Assembly: GCA_947305655.1 (NCBI GenBank)
Contig: CAMZEA010000001.1
Location: forward strand, 62,211 to 126,210
Reading direction: 5' to 3'
DNA length: 64,000 bases
Source of the DNA: an uncultured Candidatus Saccharibacteria bacterium
GTDB taxonomy: Bacteria > Patescibacteriota > Saccharimonadia > Saccharimonadales > Saccharimonadaceae
In this document: piece after piece, positions 9,060-62,235 of the stretch
Layout of the letters: every line of letters begins with the position of its first letter
Numbering within the stretch: position 1 is the stretch's first letter
Translations under genes and position numbers: made by a program
The notes under the pieces: model-generated
What the model was told of the DNA's origin: nothing
Databases searched by the model: none
What the model saw: only the letters and a program-made list of their open reading frames with translations

Positions 9060-9075
9060 ACTCTTATTATATAGA

Positions 9076-10227
9076 CTATTTGCGGACGAGTATAGCGAGA
9101 GATTCGATGTGCGGTGTGCGCGGGAAGAAGTTGTATGGTGTAACTTTTTGGATTTCGTAATCGTCGGTAAGCATCGCAATGTCGCGGGCTTGGGTGATTG
9201 GATTACAGGAAAGATAAACAATTGTCTTCGGTTTGACTTCGTTAAGCTTTTCGATGAGTTTTTTATCGCAGCCGGCGCGTGGCGGATCTAGAATGACGGT
9301 CTGGTCTGGTGTAATATATTCTGTGACATCTTCGGATTTGGCGAGGACGCATTTCGCGTTTGTGCCTTCGGCGTTCTTTTGCATTTCTTCATAGGCGGCG
9401 CCGTTTACTTCAACAAGCATTAGATCTTTGTCGCGTGCGACGGAAAGACCGATGCTGCCGACGCCAGCGTAGAGGTCGAGGACGTTATTGGTCGTAATGT
9501 ATTGCTGGATTTCTTTTAGAACCATTTCATAGACCGGCAAATTGATTTGGAAAAAGCCGTTCGGTGAGTAGCTATATTTGTAGCCGCAGAGCGTGTCTTC
9601 GAGATTCTTCATAATTGGATGTGGCTGGCCATTGACGAATAAATCGCCGCTGACATTGCCCTGCTGGTCGCAGCGCAAAAGTAGCGATTGATAAGTGCGC
9701 GCTTCGGCATGTTCGGCGTTGAGTTTCGTGATGATCTCTTGGGCTTTGGCCCAGATTTCTGGGCGCTCGATACTGGACTGCGTGATTGGAACTTTGCGGT
9801 GTGTGCCACGTTCGTGGAAAGCTGGATAAATCTTGCCATCATTATTGTCCCAATAGAGCGAATACTCCATTTTGTTGCGATAGAAAAAATCTTTGCCGTC
9901 GGTAACGGTCGGCTCTGGATTAATGGCGAGATGGTTTTGCATGAAGCATTCTTGGACGAGCAGACGTTTCTGCTCGAGCTCATAATCGTAATCCATGATT
10001 TGCCATGGGCTGGTTGCGAGGAAGCATTTGTCTTTTGGCATAATGCGATGCTCGCTGGCATTAAAAATATGGCGCCCAACGCCTTCGCAGTAGCTGCGCT
10101 TGTCTTTTGTGACGTCGAATTCTACGGGCTCATTTGGCAAGGCATTCCAAATAAAGGCTTTCTTGCCGTCTTCGGTTTCGCCGATGCCCTGTCCGCCTGG
10201 GACGAGCTTGAGAATTGTGGTTAACAT
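9076..10227 (-). CDS. TrmA/RumA-family SAM-dependent RNA (uracil-5-)-methyltransferase
   Basis: LDLYAGVGSIGLSVA (SAM motif), ILDPPRAGC, YLSCNPITQARD (catalytic Cys motif). TGCTATAAT-N7-ATG upstream. Confidence 0.85.
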   Translation of the reverse strand: MLTTILKLVPGGQGIGETEDGKKAFIWNALPNEPVEFDVTKDKRSYCEGVGRHIFNASEHRIMPKDKCFLATSPWQIMDYDYELEQKRLLVQECFMQNHLAINPEPTVTDGKDFFYRNKMEYSLYWDNNDGKIYPAFHERGTHRKVPITQSSIERPEIWAKAQEIITKLNAEHAEARTYQSLLLRCDQQGNVSGDLFVNGQPHPIMKNLEDTLCGYKYSYSPNGFFQINLPVYEMVLKEIQQYITTNNVLDLYAGVGSIGLSVARDKDLMLVEVNGAAYEEMQKNAEGTNAKCVLAKSEDVTEYITPDQTVILDPPRAGCDKKLIEKLNEVKPKTIVYLSCNPITQARDIAMLTDDYEIQKVTPYNFFPRTPHIESLAILVRK

Positions 10228-22003: not shown

Positions 22004-23665
22004 TTAGGCCGCGTCACCAAGTTCTTGCTGTGCCGGTCGGTTCGGATTAACGAACATTGGGTTAGTCGGTTGCGGCATTGGGCGCTGCTCGAGCTCTGCG
22101 GCAAGATCTGCTTCGGTTCGCTTAATCCTCTCTGTGAGGTCGTTGATTTCTTTTCGAATCTTGCGTTGCTTGAAGCCGAAGAAGTCCTTTGTATTCTGGA
22201 GGCGATTATTAGCTTCCCAGAGGGCTTTTTTGTAGCTTTCGAGAAGTGCATTGTATCGAGCTACGCGTTCTTCGCTGTAGCCTTCTTTTTCGAGTTTGGC
22301 TTTTCTCTCATAGTCTTCGCGCATGACGTCGTTGACGATTTTATCTATATTATTTTTCTTCGGCTTGCCGCTTACTTCTGCGATTGCGATGGCTTGGCCG
22401 GCAATTTTCTTAAGCGCCTCTTTTGCTTGGTCTTCGGTTTCGAATCCGCCGATTTCGATTGTGCGAGCTTTTGGCTGGTTTTCGACTCCGGCTTTGCGGC
22501 GTTCTTCTTCCTCTTTTGCCCTCATATCTTTTTCGTAGGCTATTTCGACTGAACCCAGCGCGAGAGCGAGCTCTTCGTCACTCATCTCGTCGATCCTCGC
22601 TACATCTACGCCGGCTTTTTTGAGGTATTTTGCATATTTGCGGCTGCGCAAGTCGTGGCGGTTTTTCGCGATACGTTCTTCGTTGGTTAGCGTTTCGGCC
22701 GCTTGGTCTTGAGGGGCGGCTAGCTTTTCTTCAATTTTTTGCTTTAGGCTGTCGAGTTCTTCGTCGGAGTAATTTTCGATATCGGACGCCTTTACGCCAA
22801 GTTCGGCATAGAATTTAACTGCGCTTCTGCCGCGGACGAAACGAAGTGCTTCTTTGCGCTTTGCTTCCTTGTCTTCGTTATTTTCTGGGGCTTTTGGCGT
22901 TTGCGGTTCGGCGTCTCCGTGATTGACAATCGGCGTAATCTTGGCCCTCTTCGTTTTTAACTCTTCTGCTAGCTGTGAATACCTTTCGGAAATTGCCTGA
23001 ATCTTCGCGAGAGACTTACGCATTTCTGCGAGCGAATCATTAATAGACTCGCCATTTTCGGCGTTTTGCTCCTGAACGGTTTTGAGCTGCTCGGCGAACT
23101 GATTATGGCCATGACTAAAGACGGCGCCACCTTCGGCTGCTTCGATGCGCTTGGCCCAATCATTGGTGCTTTCGCCTGGTTTGCGCGGGTATTTATCGTG
23201 AAGGGCGCGTTTTTCTTTGTCGTCGAGAGTGCTCCATTTACTTCGATTCTGGCTGTCGCGGTATTCTTGGAGGGACGGAATCATTTTTTTGACGCGAGCA
23301 TTGTAATCTTCGAGGCTTTCGTTTTCTTCGCGAGGGGTTTCATCCATGATTCTTTGGGCTTCATGCTGCCATTTGAGGCGGATGCCGTAATCCGCAGAAC
23401 TTTCGCCTTTTTGGCGAGGATTGAGATCGAAATCGCTTTCGGTGCGTTCATGTTCGACGCCCTTATCGTCGATGCGGACATTCTTTTCGCCATCGAAGTT
23501 TGTAAGGTCAATGGTCTTTTCGGCGTCTTCGGTCGAAAAATCTACGTCTTGGAATTTGCTTGCCTGCTGTTCCAAAGCGGCCCAGACATTTTCCATCTCG
23601 GCTTGTTGTTTTTCGTCGAGATTTTCGAGCTCATTCTTAGGAGCCCCCTCGAGTCCCTCTTTCAT
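22004..23665 (-). CDS. Highly charged E/K-rich repeat-containing hypothetical protein (about 553 aa)
   Basis: Three P-R-x3-E-S-x2-D-[YW]-x2-R repeats and two [YF]-x3-G-V-x3-I-[ED]-x-[YM]-S-D-E-E-L repeats. Only 5 nt upstream of prmC. ATG 23665 preferred over TTG 23668. Confidence 0.7.
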   Translation of the reverse strand: MKEGLEGAPKNELENLDEKQQAEMENVWAALEQQASKFQDVDFSTEDAEKTIDLTNFDGEKNVRIDDKGVEHERTESDFDLNPRQKGESSADYGIRLKWQHEAQRIMDETPREENESLEDYNARVKKMIPSLQEYRDSQNRSKWSTLDDKEKRALHDKYPRKPGESTNDWAKRIEAAEGGAVFSHGHNQFAEQLKTVQEQNAENGESINDSLAEMRKSLAKIQAISERYSQLAEELKTKRAKITPIVNHGDAEPQTPKAPENNEDKEAKRKEALRFVRGRSAVKFYAELGVKASDIENYSDEELDSLKQKIEEKLAAPQDQAAETLTNEERIAKNRHDLRSRKYAKYLKKAGVDVARIDEMSDEELALALGSVEIAYEKDMRAKEEEERRKAGVENQPKARTIEIGGFETEDQAKEALKKIAGQAIAIAEVSGKPKKNNIDKIVNDVMREDYERKAKLEKEGYSEERVARYNALLESYKKALWEANNRLQNTKDFFGFKQRKIRKEINDLTERIKRTEADLAAELEQRPMPQPTNPMFVNPNRPAQQELGDAA

Positions 23666-23747
23666 CAAAATACCTCTCTTATGCTTATGTTTATCATAAC
23701 AAAAAGACCGCTTGAATACAAGCGGTGCTTTCTGTTTTTATTAGGGG

Positions 23748-46037: not shown

Positions 46038-46091
46038 TTTAGACTCCTTCATATATTAATGGTTTATAGTCCCCCACTTGTGATTGCAAAC

Positions 46092-46616
46092 TTAGGCGTT
46101 TGCCTTGTCGGCAACACCATCGAGCAAAGCGTGCAAATTGCCAGAAAGGCCATTCGTAACGTCGTTGATTGGGCTGAGGAGCATGTCCACGACCTGACCA
46201 ATGAGTTGCTCTTTGCTTGGAAGCTTGGAAAGATCCTGAACTTCCTGCTCGGATAGGTTCTTGCCGTCGCCAGCAAAGGCACCCTTGAGCTCGAGCATCG
46301 TGTGTTCTTTTGCGAATTTCGCAAGAACCTGTGCTGGGGCAACTTCGTCTTCGCTAGAAATAGCGTAAAGAAGCTGACCTTCGAGCGCGGTAGTATCGGT
46401 GTCTTTGTAAGCCGCGATTTCGCCCATAGCAACACGGACGAGGCGGTTCTTGACGACCTTGATTTGTACGCCGCTTTCGCGAGCCAAAGCGCGAAGTTCC
46501 TGCATTTCCTTGACCGTGAGGCCCTGGTATTTTGCAAAAACAGTCATCTTGGCATCGGAAAGAATCTCGTTTAAGTCGGCAACCAATTGTTGTTTCTTAT
46601 CTTTGCTAATTGCCAT
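46092..46616 (-). CDS. rplJ: 50S ribosomal protein L10
   Basis: MAISKDKKQQLVADL...FAKYQGLTVKEMQELR pattern, upstream of rplL. AAAAGGAG SD. Confidence 0.95.
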   Translation of the reverse strand: MAISKDKKQQLVADLNEILSDAKMTVFAKYQGLTVKEMQELRALARESGVQIKVVKNRLVRVAMGEIAAYKDTDTTALEGQLLYAISSEDEVAPAQVLAKFAKEHTMLELKGAFAGDGKNLSEQEVQDLSKLPSKEQLIGQVVDMLLSPINDVTNGLSGNLHALLDGVADKANA

Positions 46617-48749: not shown

Positions 48750-50717
48750 GTGGGCTTCTTCGGTAATCTCTTTAAAAAACCGAAAACTGAAGCGGTTTAT
48801 GAGATAAAATCTCCTGATCGTAGGTTGGTCGCGACGTTCATGGTTGACCATGGGCAGATTTCTTATTTTGTTAAAAAAGACGACAAGATTATATTGCGCA
48901 AGTCCCGTTTGGGTCTGCTTTTGAAGGACACTACTCCTCTTGCCGACAATTTCTCGATTGTTCGTGCGTATTCCCGTTCGGCCGATGAGACCTGGAAGGC
49001 CTTCTGGGGAGAGCAGCGAGTAATTCGCAATAATTATAACGAGACGGCTTTCTATCTCGAAGAAACTGAAAAACCAAATCGCCTACTAACGGTGCGTTTT
49101 CGCCTCTATAACGACGGCGTCGCTTTCCGTTATGAAGTACCGGCTCAGCCGGCAATGGAAAATATGGTCGTCGCCGATGAAATCACTGAGTTCTCGGTAG
49201 ACTCTAATTCGCGCTCTTGGTGTATTCCTGCTTATCAGCCCGATCGTTACGAATATGACTATTCGGAACATCCAGTTTATTCTATTACCGATTCTGTCCA
49301 TACTCCAATCACTATTCAGACTCCTGTTGGCTATTATGTCGCGATTCATGAGGCGGCCCTATATAACTATGGATCGATGACTTTGCGCCTCAATAACTCG
49401 TCCTTGAAGGCGGATATTACGCCGCTTTCCGATGGTATGCGCGCTTATGTTGAATTGCCGTTTTCTACGCCTTGGCGTACGATTACGGTTGCTCAGGACG
49501 CACTCGACCTTACTGTTTCTCGTATGATTTTGAACCTTAACGATGCGCCGCGCGACGACTTTTCGTGGGTTGAACCGACCAAGTTTATGGGTATTTGGTG
49601 GGCGATGTATGTCGGCGAGTGGACTTGGGCTCCTGGTGAGCGCCACGGCGCAACAACTGAACATGCGATGCGCTATATTGATTCCTGTCGTAATCTTGGA
49701 ATTCCTTCCCTCCTCGTTGAGGGCTGGAATGATGGCTGGGAAGGTGATTGGCTCGAGAATGGCGTCAATAATAAATTCACGCAGTCGACGCCTGATTTTG
49801 ATATGAAAGCGGTCACTGATTACGGTCGCAAGAACGGTGTCGAAATAATTGGCCATCATGAAACGGTTGGCTTTATCGATAATTATGAGGCGCAGCTTGA
49901 TGATGCTTACAAGTATTTGGCGCAGTATGGCATTCGTTACGTAAAATCGGGCTATGCCGGCTCTAAGATGACAATTAATGGTCATCGCGAGTTCCATCAT
50001 TCGCAGCTTGGCGTTTTACACTATCAGAAAGCATTGGAGCTTGCTGCTAAGTATCATATTATGCTCGACGTCCATGAGCCGATTAAGGGCACCGGTATTG
50101 AGCGTACTTGGCCTAACTTGATGACTCGCGAGGGCGCTCGTGGCCAGGAATATGAAGGCGGTGCTTTGGCGCCATCGCATGCTTGTTATTTGCCATTTAC
50201 GCGCCTTCTTAGTGGCGGCATGGATTATACGCCTGGCATTCTTGATGTTTCGAATTTCTCAAAGCGTATCGCTTCGACGCTGACTCGTCAGCTCGCTTAC
50301 TACGTGACGATTTATTCTTCAATGCAGATGGCGGCTGATCGTCCGCAGATTTATGAATCTCAGCATCCAGACCTTTTCCACTTTATCCGCGAGGTCCCGA
50401 CGCGTTGGGAGCAAACTGTGCCGCTACTCGGCGAGATTGGCAAGTATTATGTCGTTGCGCGCCAGCAATGGGAAGGCACTGATTGGTATGTTGGTGGCGT
50501 GACGAATGAAGAAGGCCGCAAGCTCGATCTCTATTTTGACTACCTCGAGCCGGGCGTGAATTACGTAGCAGTGATTTACCGCGATTCTGAAGACGCGCAC
50601 TACCGCGATCATCAGCTCGGATATGTCATAGAAGAGCGCATCGTGCGCCACGGCGACAAAATGGAGATGTACGTCGCGCCGGGCGGCGGTTTTGCGATGC
50701 ATCTCAAGAAGCAATAG
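48750..50717 (+). CDS. Glycoside hydrolase, GH97-like (alpha-glucosidase/alpha-galactosidase family), no signal peptide
   Basis: 655-aa ORF. N-terminal SPDRRLVATFMV..GQISYFV..SRLGLLL layout and a central TIM-like region (YVKSGYAG, HEPIKGTGIERTWPNLMTREGARGQEYE). The family call is from memory of the GH97 layout. GTG start with GAGGAA SD. Confidence 0.65.
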   Translation: MGFFGNLFKKPKTEAVYEIKSPDRRLVATFMVDHGQISYFVKKDDKIILRKSRLGLLLKDTTPLADNFSIVRAYSRSADETWKAFWGEQRVIRNNYNETAFYLEETEKPNRLLTVRFRLYNDGVAFRYEVPAQPAMENMVVADEITEFSVDSNSRSWCIPAYQPDRYEYDYSEHPVYSITDSVHTPITIQTPVGYYVAIHEAALYNYGSMTLRLNNSSLKADITPLSDGMRAYVELPFSTPWRTITVAQDALDLTVSRMILNLNDAPRDDFSWVEPTKFMGIWWAMYVGEWTWAPGERHGATTEHAMRYIDSCRNLGIPSLLVEGWNDGWEGDWLENGVNNKFTQSTPDFDMKAVTDYGRKNGVEIIGHHETVGFIDNYEAQLDDAYKYLAQYGIRYVKSGYAGSKMTINGHREFHHSQLGVLHYQKALELAAKYHIMLDVHEPIKGTGIERTWPNLMTREGARGQEYEGGALAPSHACYLPFTRLLSGGMDYTPGILDVSNFSKRIASTLTRQLAYYVTIYSSMQMAADRPQIYESQHPDLFHFIREVPTRWEQTVPLLGEIGKYYVVARQQWEGTDWYVGGVTNEEGRKLDLYFDYLEPGVNYVAVIYRDSEDAHYRDHQLGYVIEERIVRHGDKMEMYVAPGGGFAMHLKKQ

Positions 50718-52826: not shown

Positions 52827-55800
52827 TTATTCCTCGTTCTGGTGCCCTGCTATACAGCGTACCGACAAGGCGTACCATTTATTGGTCGTAGAGTGGTTAT
52901 TGCCTAGATAGAGGTCGCCCCAGCGATTAACGACGACGGTTAAGCCTATGGTGCTTTCGCTGAGGGATGGGCCCGGCTTCGAGCTGCCGGTCCAGATTTT
53001 GCCCTGAGAACCGCGAGATGAGCCGGTGTTGTCGACGCTATATGAGCCAGCGAGGACGAAGTTCACTGGGTAGGATAGCCAGTTATTGGTAATATCGAAG
53101 GAGTGGCTGATTTGTCCGTCCCCGCCCATTAGCTGATCGAGTGTGGCGGTTTGCTGATTGTTGCGGCCGGTCGGTATATGCCAGTTTGCCGGGCAAATGT
53201 CTCCGCCGGCGTATGCAGCGCTTCTGCTGCTTGTCCCATGGCCTGCTGTGGCGGTATACCAGTTGTAGTGCCCGCCGTATGCGTACCATGAGGTGACATT
53301 ATCGTTATCGTTGTAACTTGCTGGATTATTTCGGTCGATATCTGCGGTACTGAATGAGATATGGCTTTCGCAGTCGTTGCTGATTTCTTGGCATTCAGCG
53401 ATGGTCTCTGTGGCTTTTCCGTGGAACTTCTGATTGAATTCGTTGATAAAATCCTGGGTTGGGTTGTTCGTATTGGTACTATTAATGGTTAGGCTCGGGC
53501 TGTTTAGATCTAGTCTCAAGTTCTCAATCATCCACCAGTGCCCGTCTGCGAGTTTCGCTACCGCATAGACATTATCGTCGCGTTCATCGCGAAGAGCGAT
53601 AACGGTGTTTTGTGGCGCAGATGCATACGGCTCGTTATTTTCATTGAAGCTTTGCATCGTTACGCTCGTCTCTGCTGATTGCCACTGGGCGTAGAGATAA
53701 ATATCGTCTACGGCTGCGAGAGTAATATATTGGTTTGGGCCATACATCGTGCCGGTGCCGTCAGCTTTTGTATTCCAGCCAATGAAGCCGTTGCCGGCGA
53801 GACTAAAGTTAGGCGCAGTAAGCACCGCGGTATGGTCTGGCGGGCAGATTTGCTGTGCCGGCATCTCGCCCACAGCAGAAGTATTATTCTTCAGGTAGTG
53901 GACGTTCGTACAGTTTTCCTCCCAGAGCGCGTACAAGGTGGTCGTGTCTGCTACATTGAACGATTCGCCGGCGTAGAACATCTCTTCTTCGTAGACGTAG
54001 TTTTGGCCGTAGATCTTGTCTTTATTATTCTCTTCGATCCAGGCGGTGAAGCTGTAGTGTTCGCGGGTTGGCTCTTCGTCTGTGATAGTAAACGAATAGC
54101 TATGGCCAGTTGCGGTTGCGGTTTGCGCCTCTGGCGCATCTTCGCCGCCGTTTGCATCGTAGTTCAAGGTAAAGGTTCTCTCGGTGTTGTTTGTGGCCGA
54201 GTATGGATTGCCCGTAACACAGCGAGCAGAAAGGAGATAAGGGAGCGCTCCGAGTTGTTGCCCCGCGATAAACCCTGCCTGTGACGATTCTACGCCAGGC
54301 TTCATGAGCATTGTTGCGTAGACATTATAACTACTATTGCCGTGGTCATATAGAGCGTCGCTGCCGAGATAGAAGCCGACCAGGCCGCGGTATAGGTAAT
54401 CCGTGCTTTGCCCAAGCATTGAGCCGAATCCTGGGGCATAGATGCCTGCGAACATAAAGTTGTTCGGGTAGCTTGTCCATGTGGCTAGCTGCTCATCCAT
54501 CGTCTGGGTGTCATCTGGGTCGAGGGCGTCTTCGAGATTGCGGTAGTCGCCTCCGTCGTCGCCGCTAGGTACGCGCCAGCCGCTTGGGCAGATTTCATCG
54601 CTATCGTCTTCGTTGTCTGTGCCACGGACGTTGTCTCCCGTGTAAAATCCGCCATAGCCATATAGCGCAGTATCATCGTTGGAGCCGTCGCCGCGGTTTG
54701 TCACGCTACTTATGTCAGAGTCGGCGAGTTCCGTGCGAATATTTTCAATTGTCCAGCAGTTGCCGTCTGCAAGGCGAGCTACTGCGTAAGTCTCGTTATT
54801 GCGTTCGTCTGTGAGGGCCGTAATTTCGCCTTCCGCGAGGTCAGCGCACTTGAATCCAGCCATTTTACCTGCCGATTTAATCCAAATGGCATAGAGCTTG
54901 AGCGAGCCACTATTTGGCATAGTAATGGTTTGGTTTGGACCGTACATTATGCCGGTACCGTCGGCTTTTGTACCCCATCCAGCGAAACCATAGCCTGCTC
55001 TACTGAAGTTTGTAGCGCGGAGCATGACGTCTTCGCCTGCGGTTGCGGCCTGGTCCATCATTGCGCCTTCGGCGTCGCTGCTGTTTGCGTAGTAGCAGAT
55101 GCCGGTACAGTCGCTATATGAGAATATGACGTTGTTCTCTAGCGTGAAACTGTCGTCGAGAGTAGATGCTGCGCCTACGGTGAGGGTAGCAAACGCAATA
55201 GACACTGCGGCGACCGTGATGATAGCGGCAGAGATTTTGTGGTGTTTTTTGTAACAGATAAATACTATGAATGTAGTCAATGATGCGATGAGTATTATGG
55301 CTGCAGTTTTGATGGTCGCTGCGTCAGAATCCGTTTTCGGGTTATTGCCGGCTGGTTCGCTTGCGGCGGGAGTAATTTCCGCTTTGGCCAGAGTAGTGGT
55401 CGGTTTCGGGTCCGGTTCTGGGTCTGGTGCGACGGTGACGGTTTGCGTAGCAGTTTGACCCTCGTCGTTTTCGTAGGTTATTTTGATGGTCGTGTCGAAT
55501 TGTTGCCGCGCAAGAGATGGCGATTCGATTTCGTTGCTATAGATCGCTTTGAAAACGAGGCTGAACGTGCTGCCAGAAGCTATTGTATCTTCGATGTTGC
55601 TGTTGTAATCGTAACTAAGATAGTTATTGCTCGCGCTGATATTTGCGCTAAGGATATGACGGGTTTTTGTGTCGGAATTTTCGAAGGTGAAGGTATATTC
55701 GACGTACTCGCCGACATTGTGGAAGACGATACTATTTGTTGCGGTCGTATCCGAGAAGTCCGAAATTGAAGCCTCGGTTTGAGCGGATTTGTTTGAAATT

Positions 55801-55922
55801 ACCGCGTTTTTTATCTTAAAGACCTGCTCTGCCGCATGTGCGGGGCTAATAATTGCGATTGCACTCAGAACCGCAAAAAAGGCGCCAAAGCATGCACCTA
55901 CAAATATACCTCTCTTTTTCAC
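52827..55922 (-). CDS. 1031-aa cell-surface protein with an internal sortase-type sorting signal, Listeria-Bacteroides repeats and two Fibrobacter-succinogenes-paralogous-type domains
   Basis: GTG start and signal peptide ...ISPAHA/AE. NPKTD + hydrophobic stretch + YKKHHK at aa 194-229, then a second hydrophobic anchor. Three F.GW...G.MYGPNQ...LYA.W repeats. Two copies of YAVA.LADG.W..EN...YGG.Y...CP..W..P. Confidence 0.85.
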   Translation of the reverse strand: MKKRGIFVGACFGAFFAVLSAIAIISPAHAAEQVFKIKNAVISNKSAQTEASISDFSDTTATNSIVFHNVGEYVEYTFTFENSDTKTRHILSANISASNNYLSYDYNSNIEDTIASGSTFSLVFKAIYSNEIESPSLARQQFDTTIKITYENDEGQTATQTVTVAPDPEPDPKPTTTLAKAEITPAASEPAGNNPKTDSDAATIKTAAIILIASLTTFIVFICYKKHHKISAAIITVAAVSIAFATLTVGAASTLDDSFTLENNVIFSYSDCTGICYYANSSDAEGAMMDQAATAGEDVMLRATNFSRAGYGFAGWGTKADGTGIMYGPNQTITMPNSGSLKLYAIWIKSAGKMAGFKCADLAEGEITALTDERNNETYAVARLADGNCWTIENIRTELADSDISSVTNRGDGSNDDTALYGYGGFYTGDNVRGTDNEDDSDEICPSGWRVPSGDDGGDYRNLEDALDPDDTQTMDEQLATWTSYPNNFMFAGIYAPGFGSMLGQSTDYLYRGLVGFYLGSDALYDHGNSSYNVYATMLMKPGVESSQAGFIAGQQLGALPYLLSARCVTGNPYSATNNTERTFTLNYDANGGEDAPEAQTATATGHSYSFTITDEEPTREHYSFTAWIEENNKDKIYGQNYVYEEEMFYAGESFNVADTTTLYALWEENCTNVHYLKNNTSAVGEMPAQQICPPDHTAVLTAPNFSLAGNGFIGWNTKADGTGTMYGPNQYITLAAVDDIYLYAQWQSAETSVTMQSFNENNEPYASAPQNTVIALRDERDDNVYAVAKLADGHWWMIENLRLDLNSPSLTINSTNTNNPTQDFINEFNQKFHGKATETIAECQEISNDCESHISFSTADIDRNNPASYNDNDNVTSWYAYGGHYNWYTATAGHGTSSRSAAYAGGDICPANWHIPTGRNNQQTATLDQLMGGDGQISHSFDITNNWLSYPVNFVLAGSYSVDNTGSSRGSQGKIWTGSSKPGPSLSESTIGLTVVVNRWGDLYLGNNHSTTNKWYALSVRCIAGHQNEE

Positions 55923-56040: not shown

Positions 56041-56126
56041 TGGTGCTGGGAGTAGGAGTCGAACCTACGAAGGCCGAAGCCGGCAGATTTACAGTCTGAT
56101 GCGTTTGACCACTTCGCTATCCCAGC
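56041..56126 (-). tRNA. tRNA-Tyr (anticodon GUA), long variable arm, CCA encoded
   Basis: Sense GCTGGGA...CAGA-CT-GTA-AA-TCTG...GGTTCGACTCC...TCCCAGC-A-CCA. Own promoter TTGATA-N17-TGCTAAAAT at about 56140-56170. Confidence 0.9.
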
Positions 56127-56172: not shown

Positions 56173-59100
56173 TTATTGTCCGTAGCCTTCGAGCATAGCT
56201 GCGCGGAAGTCTTCAATTAGTTGTTGGTCCGCGGTTTCGTCTGTTGACCCTTGATAGAACCAGTCGAGTACCGCGGAGTTGTCGCGGAGCCCCATGCCAT
56301 TCGTCTCGTCTAGCATCCAGACATATTTCCTGGTCGTATTGTATGTGCTGGTCTTGGTCGTGTGATCATAGTATCTATTTCTATCTGGCCTGCCGCTGAA
56401 TGTTGATAGCTCGTATTCGCGATCTTTTGTTTCGTTATCGACACCGAGTATGGCCTCGACGAGGTAGGCGATAGTGCCTGTGCGGTCTGATCCTTGCGTG
56501 CAGTGGAAGTAGACGTTTTTATTGTTAATTACTGCTTGCATGAGTGTTATGAGAGAATCGCGTGTCCATTCATAGTTGTATTTTGATTGGGTTTTAGCTG
56601 AAGAATCATTATATTTGAAGTTGTAATGAATGGTCATTTTTCTAATATATTCTGGCATCTGTACCGTAGCGTCACTTTCGCGGAGGTCGAGTTCTGTTGT
56701 AACTCCTAGTTTTTCTAGAGCACTAATATCGTTTTGCGCGATGGCTTCCCCGCGTATTAGTCGTCCGTACTTAACTTTGTGCCCATCGATACCGGTTAAG
56801 CCGCCGAGGTCTCTGACGTTTCTTGCTGCCGGCAAAGTGATGACGCGAGTTTCGCCCGTCGCTTTGACATATCCGTAGACTGTTGGGTCGGTTGCTGATT
56901 CCCATTTATATAACGTGCCCGGAATCATGTTCGTAATTTTGCCGTTATCGGTAGTTACGTAGTCGGCAAGGCCTTTTATCGTTTTGTCTTCGTTGACTAT
57001 GTAAACGTTTATATTGCCACTCGTTTTAGTATCATATGCCTCTTGGCGATCGCAGTAGTTCACGCCGGTGTTGTTTTTGTCATAACGATATTCGTAGTAT
57101 TCTCCAGTTGTTTGATTCCAGTCTGGCGAGAGGTCTGGGCTACTGTTCATCTTACACTGGTGGCTTTCGCTATCGAAATTGTCGCGTAGATTGTTCCAAA
57201 GGGCTGTCTTACTAGTATTCCAGCTATCGATGTTTTGGTAGTAGCTTTGAATAGCGTCGCTCATTACGTTATGCTCTACGATTTCTTCAGGATCCTTTGG
57301 CTCTTCTGCTTCGAGCTTTATGTACATGTTGGACATCGTTACCGTTATAAAGCGTTTCGGGGCCATATCTGTCTTATTTGGATATGCGCCAAACCATGTA
57401 GTTAAATCGAATGTTGGACTCGTGCGTCTGTCGAGTTCTATGCGTTCTGTGCCGTTAATAGAATAGTATAGCACCCCGTCTTCCCTTATTAGCTTTATGC
57501 TTGTTGTCGTCGAGATGGCGGGAGCTGGATTTGCGCTTCTCGCCGAACCTGTTCCGTCTACGTTCGAATTTATCGTGATCGATGATGATGATCTGCGAAT
57601 AATTATGCCGGGAGCTTTACCAGTCGGATCTTTTTCGCTCATGAATGTTTGTTGGTTATCATTCCAATTGCTTGCTTCTTGGACGTAGTCTTTAATTTCA
57701 AAATAAATCTCATAGTCTTTGTTTATGTTCGTAGTATTATAGAGAGCTATTCCGGTATCAATAAATTCTTTACCCGTAACGGCTGTCGTATAATTGCAAG
57801 TATTGCCTGAGACGTTCCCGTGATAGACGCCATCCGCCTTTGACGAAGCGAAAATACAATCGCCCGGATTTTGCCAGACAATTGGCATCGTATTGAATGT
57901 CCAGTGTGCATAGAGTACAGCATCGCCAGTGACTACGTAAGGCCATTCGATTTTTGTACCATTTTCCGCCTCCGTGAACCAGCCATCGAATATGTAGCCG
58001 TCACGGGTGACCTCTGGGGAATCGCTTTCTTGGAGTGTTTCGTCAACTCTTTTGTTATATGTTATATTGGACTCGTTGTTTTGTGGAACAAAGGTTAGAG
58101 TGGCGTTTACGTAGATTTCGACTGCGACGCCTACGACTTTGTTTGATTGTTTACCTACAATGTTTACCGTTGTAGTTCCCTTTGCGATTGCCGTTACAAC
58201 TCCATCTCCGTTGATAGTCGCAATATCTTCGTTGCCCGTAGCGAACTCGAACTGTTCAATTTCGCTTTCGTTTTCGATTGTAATCTGGTTAGTTTCCCCA
58301 ACTTCTAACGATAAGCTAGCTGGTGAAATTGCCGCCTGCGAGACGTCTTTCTTCCAATGTGCATGATACGTGACCTCGCCCATAATTGGCGTAGATGTGG
58401 TTAGTTCTTCGCCCCCAGTCTCTGTAGTAAACCAGCCTTCAAATACGTGGTTTTCGAGTGTTGTAGCTGGGAGGACGGAGATAGTGCTCCCCTCGGTGAC
58501 GCCAGTAATGTCCGCTACATCACTACCGCCATGTGCATTAAAGTGGACGATATACTTCGGCAATGCGACGCTAACGTTTAGCGTTGCTTCAAGCGTCGAG
58601 CGTGAACCTACGAGAGTAATTGTTGTGCTGCCGGCTGCTACGGTTGTAATATTACCGTTTTCGTCGACAGTGACGATATTGGTATTATCGCTGCGGTACG
58701 TGAATGGCTCAAGTTCGTTTGCGTTTGTTACGTTGACTTGTGCCGATTCGCCGCGCGTGATCGAAATATTAGATACGATAGCATTCGTGATGTCCATCGT
58801 CCAGTGGGCCTCGACGTTAGTGTCGTCCGTAATAGGTGTGCTGGTCGTGAACTCCGTATCGCTGTTTTCTAGGAACCAGCCATCAAAGACGTAGCCCGTG
58901 CGAGTCGGATCGGCAGGAAGCGTTCCAATTGAGCTTCCTTCTTCGACATCGGTAATGTCGGCGATTTCGTTTCCGCCCTTGGTGTCGAAGTGAACGGTGT
59001 ATCTTGGGAGAGTTACCGTGACTGGGATTTCGAAGATTTCGCCAGAGCGGCTGCCGGTGAGTACGATTTTCGCTTGGCCATTAGATACTGCAGTAACCTT

Positions 59101-62064
59101 GCCGTCTTGGTCTATCGTGGCGATTTGGTCGTTGCTAGACGACATAGTGAATGGCTCGATATTGTTCTTGTTGGTTATAGTTAGATATGCTTCGTCTCCG
59201 CGAGTAAGTTCGAAGGAGCTTGGCGATGCAATAGCCTGCTGAACGTTACGTGCCCATTTTGCGATGATCTTAACATCTTCGGTAGGCGTGTAGCCGTCTG
59301 AGATTTGCGTATTTCCAATGAACCAGCCATCGAAAATATACTTTTTGCGTGTCGTAACCGGGAGCGTCTCGATTGAGGTACCCTTTTCGATTTGCATTTT
59401 CTTATAGGAGTTGTCTAGGGTGCCCGATTTCGCATCAAACTCGACTTGGTAGTAATTCCAATCCATCTCGCCAAGGCGAATCGATAGATTGCTCAGTGTA
59501 CCGACTAGAACATTCTTTGGTTCTGGGTCTTCGGTGCCATCATTTGGATAAGCGCCAAACCATGTGGTCTGGTTGAAGTATTGATTGAAGTCGCTGACAT
59601 CCTGGAGCTCGAATAGGTTGCCGCCGTTTATCGAGATATAGACGATTCTATTGTGGCGAACGATTTTAATAGTTTGGAACTCGGTGTATGGCTTAATGTA
59701 GTTTGCCTCAAGGTAGCCAGAGCCCGTTTCGTTTAGGAGCGCCGAGCGAATGTCGATATTGTTTCCGCTCTTGCGAACAACGACGCCTGGCGATTTTGCT
59801 TGAGGAAGTGGGCTAGGTGGATTTGGGAGTTGCGATGTAGGATGCGTCGTGCTGATTTTGTTGCTAACAAAAGTTGCTTGCGCCTCAACTTGATTTGGTG
59901 AGTAGCTGTCGATATTGAAGGAGATTTCATAATCTTTATCAAAGTTTTCTGAAGTGTTGAGGGAGATTCCGGTGTCTACGAATGTCTGGCCCACAAAGTT
60001 AGTATCGCCAAATTGGCAGGTGCTGCTCGTTGTGATTGTGCCGTCTTTGCCGTTGAATATACAGTCGCCCTCGACGCTGAAAACTACTGGGAATTTGTCT
60101 TCCCATACGGCGTATAGGGTTACGGTGCCGCTGGTTGCAAGATTGATTACTTCTTCGCCATCGCTATATTCTTTTGTCGTTGCATTTGGATTTGTCGACC
60201 AGCCCTTGAAGTTGTAGCTTGCGCGCTGGAATTGGTTAGCGCTTAGATCGGCAACTTGATCGTAGGTCATGTCCTGCGGGTTCATTGAGCCGGTCGCATC
60301 GTCGGCGTTTTTATCGAATGCGATAGTGTATTTTCTTGCGGTCCACTGCGCGTATAAATGATACTCTCCGCCATCTACGCTCGTGAGATTTTGGACCTCT
60401 TCTTTATCTCCATAGCCAGTGCCGGAATCATTTGGATTTACGCTCCAGTGATCAAAGTCGTAGCCTGGGCGCGAGAAACTGTTCTCCGCAAGTGAGGTTG
60501 GTGTTTGATCGTATGTGAAACTCTGAGAAGCCGTAGCGCTGCTATTTAGGTAGTTGGCATGGAAGATGACCGCATATGTGTTTGCGCGATAGTTCGCGCC
60601 GATTGTGGCGTCTTCTGCGCCTATCGTGAAGCTTCGCGAGGCGTCAGTAACGCCGTCGGTCCAGTCGACGAAGGTATAGCCGGTTTTGCTATCGGCCGTT
60701 AGTGCGCCGGATTGCTCGAAGTAGTATTTTTGACCACTTATAAAGTCATCGCTTGAAATGGAGCCGGCATTTTCGCCAAATGTGACGGTGTACTGGTTGC
60801 GCACGTAGTAATACTCGATGAGCATTTCGCCGTCGCCTGTGATTTTCTTGCTCTGTGCAGCAGGGGCCGTGAAGCCGGTATATGTCTTGCGATCTGGCGT
60901 AGCAATGGTGTCGGTCGTGCCGGTTTCATTGTCGGTTTCAGCTAGGGTGTAATGGTCGCCGCCGCCGATATTCTGTTTGTAGTGCTTGACGGTATATGCG
61001 GTGTTCGTATTTGCGGTCCAGAAGGCATAGAGCGTAATTTCGCCTTCGGTGCGAAGATTGATGACGGATTCTTCATCGGTGTAGCTGTTGCCAGAGTCAT
61101 TGCTTTCGGTGTTCCAGTGATTGAAAGTATATCCTTCGAGGACGAAGCTGTTTTTGCTGAGTGGTTTCGCCTGGTCGTAAGTCATGGTTTGCGCACTCAT
61201 GCTACCAGCAGCGACGGAGCTATTCTTGTCGAAGATAATTTGATAAGTGTTCGCCTCGTAAATAGGCTTGATTGTCGTCGTTTCGGTTAACTCGATTGTG
61301 ATTGGATTAGCGGTTGCGTCGTTACTCCAACGGTCGAATACGTAGCCTACGCGGTCGTTTGCGGTCAATGTAATCTTAGTGCCATATTTGTATTCGCCGG
61401 TAGGGAGAGAAGATGTGGTATTCTCGATATCGCCGAGAGCGAATGCGATCTTTTCGCGGTCATAATCGTAGATAATCTCGGTGCTGCCATCTTCGGCAAC
61501 GGTTGTGGTTTTGGCGGCAGGCGCAACAAAGCCAGTATAGGCCTTCGTCGATGGCGTGACGCTATTCCCGACCACTCCGGTTTGTGTTTCAGATTCAACT
61601 ATAGAGTAATCGTCGTTTTCGAGGTTTTGCTGACGGTGAATGACGGTATATTTTGCGGTTACTTCCGGTTCGGAAGGAGCATCAGGCTCGTCTGGAGTGG
61701 ATGGAGTTTGGTTGTCTGACGGCTTTGTGCTTGGAGTGACGTTAGACGGCGCAACTGGCTCTACGGGGTTTTCGTCCGGTTCCGGAACCGGTTCTGGCTC
61801 CGGGTCGACATGCGGAATTGGATCGACTGGCTGTGGTTCTGGCGTTTCTCCTGGATTAATCGTGATATGGATCGGCGTGATAATAAGTAGCGGCACGAGA
61901 ACAAGTGTTGAAATAAAAGACGTAATGAAGGCAAGAGATTTTTTGGTTTTAATTTGGCGAATAAGGAAAGCAATTGAAATTATAACCAATAAAATGGCTG
62001 CTATCCAACGAAGTATACCCGACGCATTTGATGCGTCAACAAAGGTATAGTACTCTGTTTTCAC
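56173..62064 (-). CDS. 1963-aa membrane-anchored giant surface protein with a C-terminal CX5R tyrosine-phosphatase-like domain
   Basis: GTG start with AGGAGG SD and TGTATAAT -10. Two N-terminal TMs and a P/E-rich spacer. Two MucBP-like modules, nine Listeria-Bacteroides-type repeats, three Big_2-like modules and two LamG/ConA-like modules. C-terminal NVRDLGG...VYFHCTQGSDRTGT. Confidence 0.9.
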   Translation of the reverse strand: MKTEYYTFVDASNASGILRWIAAILLVIISIAFLIRQIKTKKSLAFITSFISTLVLVPLLIITPIHITINPGETPEPQPVDPIPHVDPEPEPVPEPDENPVEPVAPSNVTPSTKPSDNQTPSTPDEPDAPSEPEVTAKYTVIHRQQNLENDDYSIVESETQTGVVGNSVTPSTKAYTGFVAPAAKTTTVAEDGSTEIIYDYDREKIAFALGDIENTTSSLPTGEYKYGTKITLTANDRVGYVFDRWSNDATANPITIELTETTTIKPIYEANTYQIIFDKNSSVAAGSMSAQTMTYDQAKPLSKNSFVLEGYTFNHWNTESNDSGNSYTDEESVINLRTEGEITLYAFWTANTNTAYTVKHYKQNIGGGDHYTLAETDNETGTTDTIATPDRKTYTGFTAPAAQSKKITGDGEMLIEYYYVRNQYTVTFGENAGSISSDDFISGQKYYFEQSGALTADSKTGYTFVDWTDGVTDASRSFTIGAEDATIGANYRANTYAVIFHANYLNSSATASQSFTYDQTPTSLAENSFSRPGYDFDHWSVNPNDSGTGYGDKEEVQNLTSVDGGEYHLYAQWTARKYTIAFDKNADDATGSMNPQDMTYDQVADLSANQFQRASYNFKGWSTNPNATTKEYSDGEEVINLATSGTVTLYAVWEDKFPVVFSVEGDCIFNGKDGTITTSSTCQFGDTNFVGQTFVDTGISLNTSENFDKDYEISFNIDSYSPNQVEAQATFVSNKISTTHPTSQLPNPPSPLPQAKSPGVVVRKSGNNIDIRSALLNETGSGYLEANYIKPYTEFQTIKIVRHNRIVYISINGGNLFELQDVSDFNQYFNQTTWFGAYPNDGTEDPEPKNVLVGTLSNLSIRLGEMDWNYYQVEFDAKSGTLDNSYKKMQIEKGTSIETLPVTTRKKYIFDGWFIGNTQISDGYTPTEDVKIIAKWARNVQQAIASPSSFELTRGDEAYLTITNKNNIEPFTMSSSNDQIATIDQDGKVTAVSNGQAKIVLTGSRSGEIFEIPVTVTLPRYTVHFDTKGGNEIADITDVEEGSSIGTLPADPTRTGYVFDGWFLENSDTEFTTSTPITDDTNVEAHWTMDITNAIVSNISITRGESAQVNVTNANELEPFTYRSDNTNIVTVDENGNITTVAAGSTTITLVGSRSTLEATLNVSVALPKYIVHFNAHGGSDVADITGVTEGSTISVLPATTLENHVFEGWFTTETGGEELTTSTPIMGEVTYHAHWKKDVSQAAISPASLSLEVGETNQITIENESEIEQFEFATGNEDIATINGDGVVTAIAKGTTTVNIVGKQSNKVVGVAVEIYVNATLTFVPQNNESNITYNKRVDETLQESDSPEVTRDGYIFDGWFTEAENGTKIEWPYVVTGDAVLYAHWTFNTMPIVWQNPGDCIFASSKADGVYHGNVSGNTCNYTTAVTGKEFIDTGIALYNTTNINKDYEIYFEIKDYVQEASNWNDNQQTFMSEKDPTGKAPGIIIRRSSSSITINSNVDGTGSARSANPAPAISTTTSIKLIREDGVLYYSINGTERIELDRRTSPTFDLTTWFGAYPNKTDMAPKRFITVTMSNMYIKLEAEEPKDPEEIVEHNVMSDAIQSYYQNIDSWNTSKTALWNNLRDNFDSESHQCKMNSSPDLSPDWNQTTGEYYEYRYDKNNTGVNYCDRQEAYDTKTSGNINVYIVNEDKTIKGLADYVTTDNGKITNMIPGTLYKWESATDPTVYGYVKATGETRVITLPAARNVRDLGGLTGIDGHKVKYGRLIRGEAIAQNDISALEKLGVTTELDLRESDATVQMPEYIRKMTIHYNFKYNDSSAKTQSKYNYEWTRDSLITLMQAVINNKNVYFHCTQGSDRTGTIAYLVEAILGVDNETKDREYELSTFSGRPDRNRYYDHTTKTSTYNTTRKYVWMLDETNGMGLRDNSAVLDWFYQGSTDETADQQLIEDFRAAMLEGYGQ

Positions 62065-62116
62065 TTAACCTCCTAATTCTTCTTTTATTATACATTAGCG
62101 CATTGGCGCAATGCAA

Positions 62117-62159: not shown

Positions 62160-62235
62160 TGGAGCCGCAAATCAGACTTGAACTGATGACCTGCCGCTTA
62201 CAAGGCGGCTGCTCTACCAACTGAGCTATTGCGGC
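62160..62235 (-). tRNA. tRNA-Thr (anticodon UGU), CCA encoded
   Basis: Sense GCCGCAA-TA-GCTC-AGTTGGTA-GAGC-A-GCCGC-CT-TGT-AA-GCGGC-AGGTC-ATCAG-TTCAAGT-CTGAT-TTGCGGC-T-CCA. TGTAAAAT -10 upstream. Confidence 0.95.

Follow-up and report, generated by a model that had tools for sequence, protein, structure and literature searches.

The window, a stretch of 64,000 nucleotides from an uncultured Candidatus Saccharibacteria bacterium, contains a gene for a large surface protein between two tRNA genes. The gene, its expression signals and its flanks are the following:

56041..56126, minus strand, tRNA-Tyr(GTA), a flank, 47 nt past the stop of the 1963-aa gene
56173..62064, minus strand, complete surface-protein gene encoding 1963 aa (GTG start; TAA stop counted in)
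62069..62074, minus strand, ribosome-binding site AGGAGG, with the GTG start at 62064, 4 nt further on
62087..62116, minus strand, sigma-70-type promoter read from the sequence: TTGCAT at 62116-62111, an 18-nt spacer and TATAAT at 62092-62087
62160..62235, minus strand, tRNA-Thr(TGT), a flank, directly upstream of the 1963-aa gene

The promoter lies downstream of a hairpin and a T-run, which come after tRNA-Thr, and tRNA-Tyr is followed by a gene encoding another surface protein, of 1031 aa. Since the open reading frame is intact, has its own promoter and ribosome-binding site and shows a full-length orthologue, a pseudogene or an annotation artefact is ruled out, and the reading frame described in the original prediction stands. 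A protein of identical sequence is on record in NCBI/ENA, on a contig of 137 kb. The orthologue (L002) belongs to Candidatus Saccharibacteria bacterium RGIG6027, from sheep omasum, and its locus is syntenic with the window. The neighbouring genes are 77-97% identical to those of this bacterium at the protein level, whereas the 1963-aa protein shows only 68% identity, distributed as a mosaic. Divergence is greatest in its C-terminal third, with 26-66% identity in 50-aa windows, and the low synonymous identity in this third suggests allelic replacement.

The protein encoded by this gene shows an N-terminal membrane anchor, a spacer, a stalk of repeated modules and a C-terminal cassette which includes a phosphatase domain:

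61867..62016, minus strand, N-terminal membrane anchor by hydropathy: TM1 aa 17-35, loop RQIKTKKS, TM2 aa 44-66
61660..61857, minus strand, acidic Pro/Glu/Ser/Thr-rich spacer, aa 70-135, presumed wall-spanning linker
60097..61656, minus strand, proximal repeat block, aa 137-656 (Pfam and local HMMs)
59458..60102, minus strand, possible ConA-like jelly-roll unit 1, aa 655-869, with a conserved Cys668/Cys683 pair
57895..59451, minus strand, alternating Flg_new/Big_2 block, aa 872-1390 (Pfam and local HMMs)
57298..57897, minus strand, possible ConA-like jelly-roll unit 2, aa 1390-1589, with a Cys1403/Cys1423 pair
56839..57297, minus strand, cassette N-part, aa 1590-1742 (AF2 model)
56176..56838, minus strand, Cys-dependent phosphatase domain of the Y_phosphatase3 type, aa 1743-1963 (Pfam, PDB, AF2 and Foldseek)
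56476..56505, minus strand, P-loop HCTQGSDRTG, with the nucleophile Cys1855, Asp1860 and Arg1861

The two N-terminal hydrophobic helices and the P/E-rich spacer that had been predicted are both present. Kyte-Doolittle hydropathy over the whole protein shows two hydrophobic segments, at aa ~17-35 and ~44-66, and none beyond aa ~66. The RQIKTKKS loop which joins them has a net charge of +4, and by the positive-inside rule the hairpin is predicted to adopt an N-out/C-out topology with this loop in the cytoplasm. The hairpin is kept in the L002 orthologue, and in five relatives (L001, L004, L068, P0001 and P0002) it is located after an extra N-terminal domain. A weak match of the spacer to a TonB Pro-rich region is a composition effect only. 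Neither an [LIVS]Px[TSA]G motif, anywhere in the protein, nor a C-terminal hydrophobic segment was found; the anchor is the N-terminal hairpin and not a sortase (LPXTG) signal. Both the body and the C-terminal end are predicted to be extracellular, as in the original prediction, because there are only two transmembrane segments, with the +4 loop between them and an acidic tail after TM2; because the stalk modules are of types typical of extracellular proteins; because six of the seven cysteines form three conserved local pairs, the seventh being the catalytic one; and because the homologues all bear signal peptides, transmembrane anchors, dockerins or a probable T9SS-like C-terminal secretion tail (this tail judged by eye).

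The proximal block shows two 'YTVxH...YTGF' beta units (aa 137-209 and 355-428) interleaved with five Flg_new/Flg_new_2 (Listeria-Bacteroides) repeats. In the alternating block, four Flg units (aa 872-939, 1022-1090, 1171-1239 and 1322-1390) enclose three Big_2 units (aa 950-1017, 1099-1166 and 1250-1317). Pfam detects Flg_new in eight stretches (E=5e-66), Flg_new_2 in two and Big_2 in three (E=1.6e-23). The local HMMs recover eight of the Flg-type repeats, the three Big_2 units, the two YTVxH units and the two units of ~200 aa; with the Pfam Flg_new_2 unit at ~210-272 the Flg-type repeats are nine, so that the predicted numbers of nine Listeria-Bacteroides repeats and three Big_2 units were both recovered. 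The two units proposed to be MucBP-like are genuine repeats, as 21 copies of this unnamed unit are contained in nine related giant proteins, but the MucBP label fell: the isolated units have no match to MucBP (PF06458) in Pfam even at E<=10, and neither a profile of 17 sequences nor phmmer gave any match in the PDB. The two units proposed to be ConA/LamG-like are repeats too, and belong to a family of ~200-aa units with 78 copies in 47 giant proteins, in which the Cys pair and a WFG motif are invariant. The isolated units (aa 655-869 and 1390-1589) show no LamG, ConA or CBM match by sequence (Pfam; phmmer and profile against the PDB), and a protein homologue search with the ConA-like unit gave a single fragment. 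The AF2 model of the unit is poor (pLDDT 45, from an alignment of four sequences), and the best Foldseek matches examined for this poor model are all ConA-like folds, at query-normalised TM-scores (TMq) of 0.35-0.42: the BoNT binding domain, galectin, neurexin LNS and LamG domains, and PL7 lyases.

As had been proposed, the C-terminal module is a genuine PTP-fold domain of the Y_phosphatase3 type. The match to Y_phosphatase3 (PF13350) covers aa 1743-1905 with E=3e-24 and 86.7 bits, against a gathering cutoff of 22.2, and the PDB sequence matches are 8dhi and 1ywf. For aa 1590-1963 AF2 gives a confident model (pLDDT 89.6, pTM 0.91), which Foldseek aligns with 8dhi/8dhj at E~1e-9 and with PtpB (1ywf) at 2e-7, at target-normalised TM-scores (TMt) of ~0.5-0.57; laforin (4rkk) is among the weak fold matches, at E~1e-3. 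The motifs RNVRDLGG and ELDLRE are also contained in the domain. The position of HCTQGSDRTG at nt 56476-56505 confirms the numbering of Cys1855 and Arg1861 in the HCX5R loop, and these two residues, whose conservation was a check set for the prediction, are invariant in an alignment of 121 homologues and in 80 genome loci. In the 121 homologues the C, G, D, R and G of the P-loop are invariant, and C, D, R, NxRDLGG and DLR are invariant or near-invariant; the pattern HCxxG[A/T/S]DRTG is present in 80/80 loci. The P-loop position at which enzymes of the PtpB type carry a lysine is Ser1859 here and is alanine in 60, threonine in 15, serine in five and lysine in none of the 80 loci. The position equivalent to the general acid Asp82 of PtpB is not clearly conserved in the homologue alignment. 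The cassette N-part comprises a short helical region with a Cys1637/Cys1671 pair, a disordered loop and an fn3-like beta-sandwich, and is conserved jointly with the phosphatase domain in homologues; in relatives it gives weak, sub-threshold matches to fn3 and to Pur_ac_phosph_N, the N-terminal domain of purple acid phosphatases. Because of the Y_phosphatase3 score, the confident PTP-fold model and the retention of the catalytic residues despite fast divergence of the C-terminal third, the cassette is probably a catalytically competent phosphomonoesterase.

Relatives of the cassette were found in 385 species genomes by genome scan. The best 68 of them are proteins of 1,000-2,700 aa from ruminant-gut Saccharibacteria and low-GC Bacilli, and an exhaustive HMMER search gave 155 representatives at E<=1e-30, most of them of 1,000-3,300 aa. 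The first protein search for the cassette returned only proteins of <=654 aa; it took the genome scan and the exhaustive HMMER search to reveal the giant homologues. Dockerin proteins and secreted proteins of Bacteroidales also bear the cassette, and some relatives show Big_2 together with a weak CBM_4_9 match. The fusion of a giant protein with a phosphatase is therefore a large family and no singular oddity. The claim that such an adhesin-phosphatase fusion had not been described agrees with the literature searched, in which no account of this architecture was found (dockerin- and tail-fibre-linked tyrosine phosphatases included), but the fusion itself is widespread. The placement of the phosphatase at the distal tip holds for this protein and not for the family: in ~26 Saccharibacteria homologues a linker and a transmembrane anchor at the C-terminus come after the domain, which therefore lies close to the producer's own membrane, and the proteins of phages and Bacteroidales carry it at the N-terminus or in the middle. 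Since the position varies, reach toward a partner cell is no conserved requirement.

The cassette is encoded in 178 IMG/VR viral contigs. In the two contigs examined (L095 and L108) its gene is located between tail-fibre and lysis genes: in L095 it overlaps a collagen-like tail-fibre gene at that gene's stop codon, and in L108 it is flanked by tail-fibre genes and an endolysin. A third locus (L138) shows a tail-fibre-type collagen-repeat protein with the cassette at its C-terminus. Three phage proteins of ~600 aa superpose on the whole cassette fold, with TMq of 0.57-0.65. INPHARED phage genomes gave no match to the cassette by tblastn, and PHROGs contains no family for the phage cassette protein; beside this absence, the phage genes could be cargo located between the tail and lysis modules and not parts of the virion.

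In a comparison with known systems the domain comes closest to the Y_phosphatase3 enzymes. PtpB of Mycobacterium tuberculosis (1ywf/2oz5), which is likewise exported, and the PTP of Clostridioides difficile (8dhi/8dhj) share with it an above-threshold Pfam score, the PTP fold, the NxRDxGG and DLR motifs and the HCxxGxDRTG P-loop with an Asp within the loop, at a sequence identity of about 20%. Unlike them, the cassette has an obligatory helical region and fn3-like sandwich before the phosphatase, and the domain is borne on a membrane-anchored stalk of ~1,600 aa, whereas known Y_phosphatase3 enzymes are soluble proteins of ~250-300 aa. The signature of the ALP (PtpB-type) group is HCXXGKDR[TA]G, in which the extra Lys serves substrate binding (PMC6409689); with Ser1859 at this position the protein falls outside the group, and the suggestion of a lipid phosphatase of the phosphoinositide type is disfavoured because this defining lysine is absent. 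Pho16B and the PTP-like cysteine phytases of rumen bacteria, such as PhyA of Selenomonas ruminantium, are likewise extracellular Cys-dependent phosphatases and a precedent for non-protein substrates, but Pho16B keeps the ALP lysine and is a single-domain enzyme of 38 kDa (PMC6409689), and the phytases belong to another Pfam family (PF14566), to which the 1963-aa protein shows no match at E<=0.01. Laforin and SEX4, the glucan phosphatases, are also fusions of a beta-sandwich, carbohydrate-binding in their case, with a Cys phosphatase of the DSP fold, and the phosphomonoesters they attack are bound to a polymer. The 1963-aa protein has no CBM20 or CBM48 and no DSPc above threshold in Pfam, which sets it outside that group, and the resemblance is architectural only and serves as a lead. 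Giant repetitive surface proteins of reduced-genome or predatory bacteria, such as those of the CPR (Vampirococcus), of Omnitrophota and of Apilactobacillus ('Giant'), are likewise very long and extracellular, with Ig-like, Flg_new-type repeats, and are proposed to have a role in cell-cell interaction; their titles and abstracts mention no PTP-type module, and 1,963 aa is modest beside them. With phage tail-fibre and tailspike enzymes (depolymerases, esterases) the likeness is one of gene location: the cassette is shared with proteins of ~600-670 aa at the end of the tail module, and this place, like the C-terminus of a collagen-repeat protein, is that of receptor-binding or receptor-modifying enzymes. 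No description of a phosphatase in a tail-fibre or tailspike role was found in the literature searched.

Among the options named in the original prediction was an effector delivered on contact. In this reading the C-terminal phosphatase would be released by cleavage or carried into a partner or competitor cell, and would there dephosphorylate cytoplasmic proteins or lipids in the style of polymorphic toxins. An enzymatic C-terminal domain on a long filamentous protein, the strong divergence and suggested allelic replacement of the C-terminal third, and a weak match to Tc-R-P (PF22785, 'polymorphic toxin system DSP-PTPase') at E=7.5e-4 all suit it, although this match scores 20.4 bits, under the 27-bit gathering score. 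The tRNA-Tyr gene 47 nt past the stop leaves no room for an immunity gene, no small downstream gene is conserved in the Saccharibacteria loci, and 68/68 giant homologues share one type of phosphatase cassette with no alternative toxins; a classical delivered toxin is therefore not supported. Pfam recognises no pre-toxin, peptidase or translocation domain, and in many homologues the chain continues beyond the phosphatase, with a membrane anchor or other domains, so that delivery appears quite improbable. If the PTP fold instead bound phospho-ligands as a 'lectin', so that the adhesin tip trapped its substrate and turned over little or none of it, this would agree with the location of the domain among adhesion-type modules and with the equivalent of Asp82, which is not clearly conserved. 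Pseudophosphatases usually lose the Cys or the Arg, whereas here every homologue examined keeps the nucleophile Cys, the Arg and the P-loop Asp, which is the pattern of active enzymes. The P-loop Asp is described as the acid/base catalyst in the ALP group (PMC6409689), and a purely binding role is very improbable.

A use in nutrient scavenging has more in its favour, and is a serious possibility while still on the doubtful side. The phosphatase would free phosphate, or metabolites made importable by dephosphorylation, from soluble organophosphates of the rumen, such as phytate and other inositol phosphates, nucleotides and sugar phosphates, and the stalk would serve for display or as a tether to feed particles. 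The carriers are reduced-genome lineages of the ruminant gut (Saccharibacteria and low-GC Bacilli), a domain whose distance from the anchor varies suits plain display, and dockerin-borne relatives are placed in feed-degrading complexes. Selenomonas ruminantium and like rumen anaerobes secrete Cys-dependent PTP-like phytases. Pho16B, a secreted Y_phosphatase3 enzyme from a soil metagenome, is promiscuous and hydrolyses phytate (PMC6409689). The lack of a PTPlike_phytase match stands against scavenging, as does the cost of a ~1,600-aa stalk for so small a genome, and this use explains neither why the cassette is encoded in phage tail modules nor why the 1963-aa gene is mosaic and evolves fast.

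The explanation to which we give the most weight, with the case for and against it about evenly balanced, is that of a surface-displayed phosphomonoesterase which acts outside the cell, probably on the envelope or a glycan of another cell. The envelope or glycan target is proposed because of the location of cassette genes in phage tail modules, the dockerin and CBM_4_9 relatives and the missing P-loop lysine, and the contrast between the mosaic gene and its more conserved neighbours, of the kind expected of interaction genes, counts in its favour. The earlier suggestion of action on a foreign envelope thus gains indirect support from the phage tail modules. PTP-fold enzymes cleave monoesters, whereas in the envelope, as in teichoic acids and capsule linkages, phosphate occurs mostly as diesters; this, the variable position of the phosphatase and the possibility that the phage genes are cargo count against it. 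According to this extracellular-enzyme explanation, a ruminant-gut bacterium of the Saccharibacteria type would display the 1963-aa protein as a cell-surface fibril. The two-helix hairpin would keep the N-terminus in the membrane with its positive loop inside the cell, the acidic Pro/Glu spacer would cross the wall, and ~16 beta-sandwich modules (nine Flg_new-type, three Big_2, two YTVxH and two probable ConA-like jelly rolls) would form the long stalk. The C-terminal cassette, composed of the helical piece, the fn3-like sandwich and the Y_phosphatase3-type domain, would be exposed outside the cell, where Cys1855 as a thiolate may act with Arg1861 and the P-loop Asp1860. It would work extracellularly in the anoxic, reducing gut, with no injection. 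The likeliest substrate would be a phosphorylated envelope component of another cell, or a phosphorylated glycan, met on contact, and the action would be analogous to that of the enzymatic domains of phage tail fibres, which share the cassette.

A module common to giant surface proteins and phage tail clusters suggests an undescribed enzyme acting on the surfaces of other cells. More broadly, and only tentatively, the lysine-less cassette may represent an unrecognised class of contact-acting phosphatases that modify envelopes or glycans, common to phage tail fibres and to the fibrils with which episymbiotic or reduced-genome bacteria of the gut (Saccharibacteria and low-GC Bacilli) attach; in both it would serve to recognise or remodel a phosphorylated bacterial-surface receptor during attachment, entry or feeding. 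If so, an arms race with the partner would account for a gene that is mosaic and recombining. An enzyme that is conserved and predicted to be catalytically intact, on the largest surface protein of these Saccharibacteria, offers a testable handle on host recognition and exploitation by Saccharibacteria and other ultra-small episymbionts, about which little is known beyond type IV pili. Phage tail clusters with the cassette would add phosphomonoester hydrolysis to the repertoire of receptor-modifying phage enzymes, and a scavenger of phytate or other organophosphates would bear on phosphorus cycling and feed use in ruminants. Either way, a function would be provided for several hundred large proteins which are now named 'tyrosine phosphatase family protein' or are unnamed.

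The 1963-aa predicted surface protein of the window has at its C-terminus a Cys-dependent phosphatase of the Y_phosphatase3 family, intact in structure and maintained in evolution; the assignment is well supported, the activity predicted. The Pfam Y_phosphatase3 match covers aa 1743-1905 (E=3e-24; 86.7 bits, cutoff 22.2), and the P-loop, HCTQGSDRTG, was read from the sequence at nt 56476-56505 of the minus strand. The AlphaFold2 model of the C-terminal cassette (aa 1590-1963), obtained with a 121-sequence alignment, has a mean pLDDT of 89.6 and a pTM of 0.91, and contains a small helical part, a beta-sandwich and a PTP domain of alpha/beta type, with a loop at model residues 57-68 as the sole disordered stretch. 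Foldseek against the PDB matched this model to the C. difficile protein tyrosine phosphatase (8dhi/8dhj, E~1e-9) and to M. tuberculosis PtpB (1ywf/2oz5), with far weaker matches to DSPs, Siw14, PFA-DSPs and laforin; the PDB sequence search found the same two proteins. Cys1855, Gly1858, Asp1860, Arg1861, Gly1863 and Thr1864 are invariant in 121/121 sequences, and the motifs NVRDLGG and DLR reach 90% conservation or more. The CX5R phosphatase module of the original prediction is borne out by the Pfam match and the PTP-fold model, and its Cys1855/Arg1861 pair by this invariance. The "atypical lipid phosphatase" group, which includes PtpB, is defined by the signature HCXXGKDR[TA]G, where Lys binds the substrate and Asp is the acid/base catalyst (PMC6409689). 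The Lys position is occupied by Ser in the window protein and by Ala, Thr or Ser in the 80 retrieved genome loci (Lys in 0/80). The domain therefore falls within Y_phosphatase3, in a distinct Lys-less subfamily, which argues against phosphoinositide-type substrates.

The gene encoding this protein and its surroundings show the following features.

Giant gene and neighbouring features in the window
56173-62064, minus strand: giant gene, uninterrupted ORF of 1963 aa
62064, minus strand: GTG start, with AGGAGG 4 nt before it
about 25 nt further upstream, minus strand: promoter TTGCAT-18-TATAAT, read from the sequence
62160-62235: tRNA-Thr, on one side of the giant gene
56041-56126: tRNA-Tyr, on the other side
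52827-55922, minus strand: second large surface-protein gene, 1031 aa, with Flg_new repeats and Fib_succ_major/FISUMP, directly downstream of tRNA-Tyr
48750-50717, plus strand: GH97 glycoside hydrolase, complete (N, catalytic and C domains), Saccharibacteria-type genome
46645-46764, minus strand: Rfam L10 leader, adjoining small ORFs (46064-46616)

The giant gene is bracketed by two of the five tRNA genes scattered in the window, and its promoter directly follows a terminator-like hairpin located after tRNA-Thr. The window has the usual genes of a chromosome, those for PolA, DinB, an AddA-like helicase, DnaB, DnaX and HisRS, together with the L10 leader. The giant protein is deposited in NCBI/ENA, unnamed, on a 137-kb contig. 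A 554-aa ORF (22004-23668, minus strand) has no Pfam match at E<=1e-5.

The stalk was mapped with Pfam and with local iterative HMMs built on the window protein and 68 related giants. In the window protein, Pfam finds eight stretches of Flg_new (E=5e-66), two of Flg_new_2 and three of Big_2 (E=1.6e-23).

Modules of the window protein
aa 137-209 and 355-428: two YTVxH units (local HMMs)
aa ~210-272, 274-351, 425-494, 497-576 and 579-656: Flg-type repeats 1-5 (Pfam/local HMMs)
aa 872-939, 1022-1090, 1171-1239 and 1322-1390: Flg-type repeats 6-9 (Pfam/local HMMs)
aa 655-869 and 1390-1589: two ~200-aa units (local HMMs)
aa 950-1017, 1099-1166 and 1250-1317: three Big_2 units (Pfam/local HMMs)
aa 1590-1963: phosphatase cassette (local HMMs)

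The module counts predicted originally (2 + 9 + 3 + 2) are therefore right, but two of the labels were not confirmed. The YTVxH units, called MucBP-like, match no Pfam model even at E<=10, and their family profile finds nothing in the PDB. The ~200-aa units, called LamG-like, have no sequence-level match in Pfam or the PDB; the best fold matches examined for their poor model (shallow alignment, pLDDT 45) are all ConA-like jelly rolls, namely the botulinum toxin binding domain, galectins, neurexin and laminin LG domains and PL7 lyases. A ConA/LamG-like fold is plausible, though unproven. Cysteines number only seven in the protein: one is that of the P-loop, and the other six make up three local pairs that each lie within one module and are kept in homologues.

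Hydropathy analysis shows exactly two hydrophobic segments, at aa ~17-35 and ~44-66, and none above threshold in the other 1,900 residues. These segments are joined by a loop, RQIKTKKS, with four positive charges; the N-tail of 16 residues is weakly acidic, and the stretch of ~65 residues behind the second helix is rich in Pro and strongly acidic. The positive-inside rule predicts a hairpin that is N-out, loop-in and C-out, in agreement with the earlier placement of the body outside the cell, and a membrane-anchored extracellular fibril is well supported as the predicted topology.

A genome scan found cassette relatives in 385 species-representative genomes, and an exhaustive HMMER search of 1.84 billion representatives gave 6,670 matches at E<=1e-3 and 155 at E<=1e-30. 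The adhesin-phosphatase fusion, of which the original prediction knew no described case, thus represents a widespread family rather than a single occurrence. Of the best 150 HMMER matches, 103 reach 1,000 aa or more (median 1,598, maximum 3,294), with the cassette nearly always C-terminal. In the best 68 loci the carrier ORF ranges from 1,000 to 2,700 aa, the shorter ones being cut by contig ends. By record title and GC, the loci fall into ruminant-gut Saccharibacteria/Nanosyncoccus (38-49% GC) and low-GC "Bacilli/Erysipelotrichaceae" MAGs (26-33% GC). Four representatives of the giant loci share with the window protein a Flg_new(/Big_2)-rich body and a C-terminal Y_phosphatase3 domain. Four types of anchor are found.

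Anchor types of the family
Type 1: N-terminal TM hairpin (window protein and the syntenic locus L002)
Type 2: signal peptide, ~140-aa domain and TM hairpin
Type 3: single N-terminal signal or anchor
Type 4: Ser/Asn-rich linker after the phosphatase, conserved xPLGV motif and C-terminal TM helix (~26 Saccharibacteria loci)

In the ~26 Saccharibacteria homologues of type 4 the phosphatase is membrane-proximal; thus the distal-tip position holds for the window protein, but only for some members of the family. The C-terminal ~110 aa of these giants show the Ser/Asn-rich linker, xPLG[V/A/L] at ~44-66 residues from the C-terminus, a hydrophobic helix and a short polar/acidic tail (L028, L030, L033, L036-L038, L041, L042, L044, L046, L048, L050-L052, L054-L056, L058, L061, L062, L065 and L066). 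This tail, missing from the window protein, has the look of a C-terminal signal for sorting or anchoring that is so far undescribed. The low-GC Bacilli giants (L015-L022, L025, L029, L045, L057 and others) have an N-terminus of the "...SIYRE/AIYR..." type. Upstream of them lie a signal peptidase I of the archaeal/SipW type (TIGR02228, score above cutoff) and one or two ~170-aa proteins whose N-termini resemble those of the giants; downstream there is often a conserved ~165-aa single-pass membrane protein. This arrangement recalls TasA-type SipW-dependent secretion operons.

The cassette is also found in other contexts. P0001 and P0002 are stalk-less proteins of ~600 aa with a TM hairpin as in the window protein, and P0047 and P0099 are cassette-dockerin fusions. 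Secreted Bacteroidales cassette proteins show Big_2, a weak CBM_4_9 match and a C-terminal tail that, judged by eye, resembles a T9SS sorting domain. A cassette relative is encoded on 178 IMG/VR viral contigs; these proteins have ~600-670 aa and no signal peptide, and most begin with MAKKLYEE..IA.AIR.KNG. Gene order (tail-fibre genes, cassette gene, lysis module) was examined in two viral contigs: in L095 a large tail protein is followed by a collagen-like tail-fibre gene, on whose stop codon the cassette gene (7539-9374) begins, and in L108 the cassette gene (7644-9629) lies between tail-fibre genes and the endolysin. In L138 (5517-8906), a 1,129-aa collagen-repeat protein of tail-fibre type has the cassette at its C-terminus. 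Foldseek against viral models matched the whole cassette (~400 columns) to three gut-phage "tyrosine phosphatase family" proteins of ~600 aa (query-normalised TM-scores 0.57-0.65). The cassette was not found in PHROGs families or in the GenBank phage collection.

The part of the window between 47.8 and 63.9 kb is syntenic with the contig of Candidatus Saccharibacteria bacterium RGIG6027 (L002, sheep omasum), with 77-97% protein identity in neighbouring genes. The most conserved of these is the GH97 gene (97% identical). L002 shows no counterpart of the 1031-aa surface-protein gene, so the locus varies in gene content too; that protein has relatives close to the giant gene elsewhere in Saccharibacteria (L037, L052 and L063). 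The giant gene is 68% identical overall to that of L002 (3111-9107), with the following distribution.

Identity to L002 (first in amino acids, then the share of identical residues that have identical codons)
Flanking genes: 77-97%; 44-58%
Giant gene, aa 1-600: 64-79%; ~50%
Giant gene, aa ~650-1050: 96-100% (97-98% in nucleotides); 93-97%
Giant gene, aa 1400-1963: 37-50%; 30-59%

The near-identical middle segment spans ~1.2 kb (approximately 58915-60147, aa ~640-1050), against a genome background of ~76-84% nucleotide identity, which indicates a recent inter-lineage recombination. The C-terminal third, to which the cassette belongs, resembles an allele of deep divergence, and amino-acid changes accumulate faster in the proximal third than in neighbouring genes. 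The catalytic motifs are retained despite this mosaic and divergence.

Activity of the phosphatase outside the cell is plausible. The anoxic, reducing gut would let an exposed catalytic thiolate survive, and such activity would fit the restriction of the family to gut anaerobes. Most probably the cassette would then act on a phosphomonoester of another cell's envelope or of a glycan, a role given about an even chance if the protein is an extracellular enzyme. It is favoured because in phages the cassette occupies the place of enzymes that bind or modify receptors, because it travels with dockerins, Big_2 and CBM-like modules, because the beta-sandwich always precedes the phosphatase, as in glucan phosphatases, and because the Lys of lipid phosphatases is missing and the giant gene evolves like an interaction gene. 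The main rival is a scavenging ecto-phosphatase on phytate, nucleotides or sugar phosphates, which suits the auxotrophic carriers and the rumen habitat and has precedents in Pho16B and PTP-like phytases, but leaves the phage-tail context unexplained.

The original prediction had also considered an effector delivered to a partner cell; its extracellular, foreign-envelope part gains support, and its delivered effector does not. A translocated toxin is unlikely given that no immunity gene and no trafficking or processing domain were found, the domain type is invariant, the Tc-R-P score is below threshold and, in many homologues, the anchor follows the phosphatase domain. A purely binding, non-catalytic domain is likewise improbable, since Cys, Asp and Arg are invariant.

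In the literature searched, no account was found of PTP-type phosphatases on giant surface proteins from Saccharibacteria or Bacilli, on dockerin proteins or in phage tail modules. The enzyme family is an established one, and databases already show the combination of domains; what is rated as new is a Lys-less, sandwich-coupled, predicted extracellular Y_phosphatase3 subfamily that is unusually deployed.
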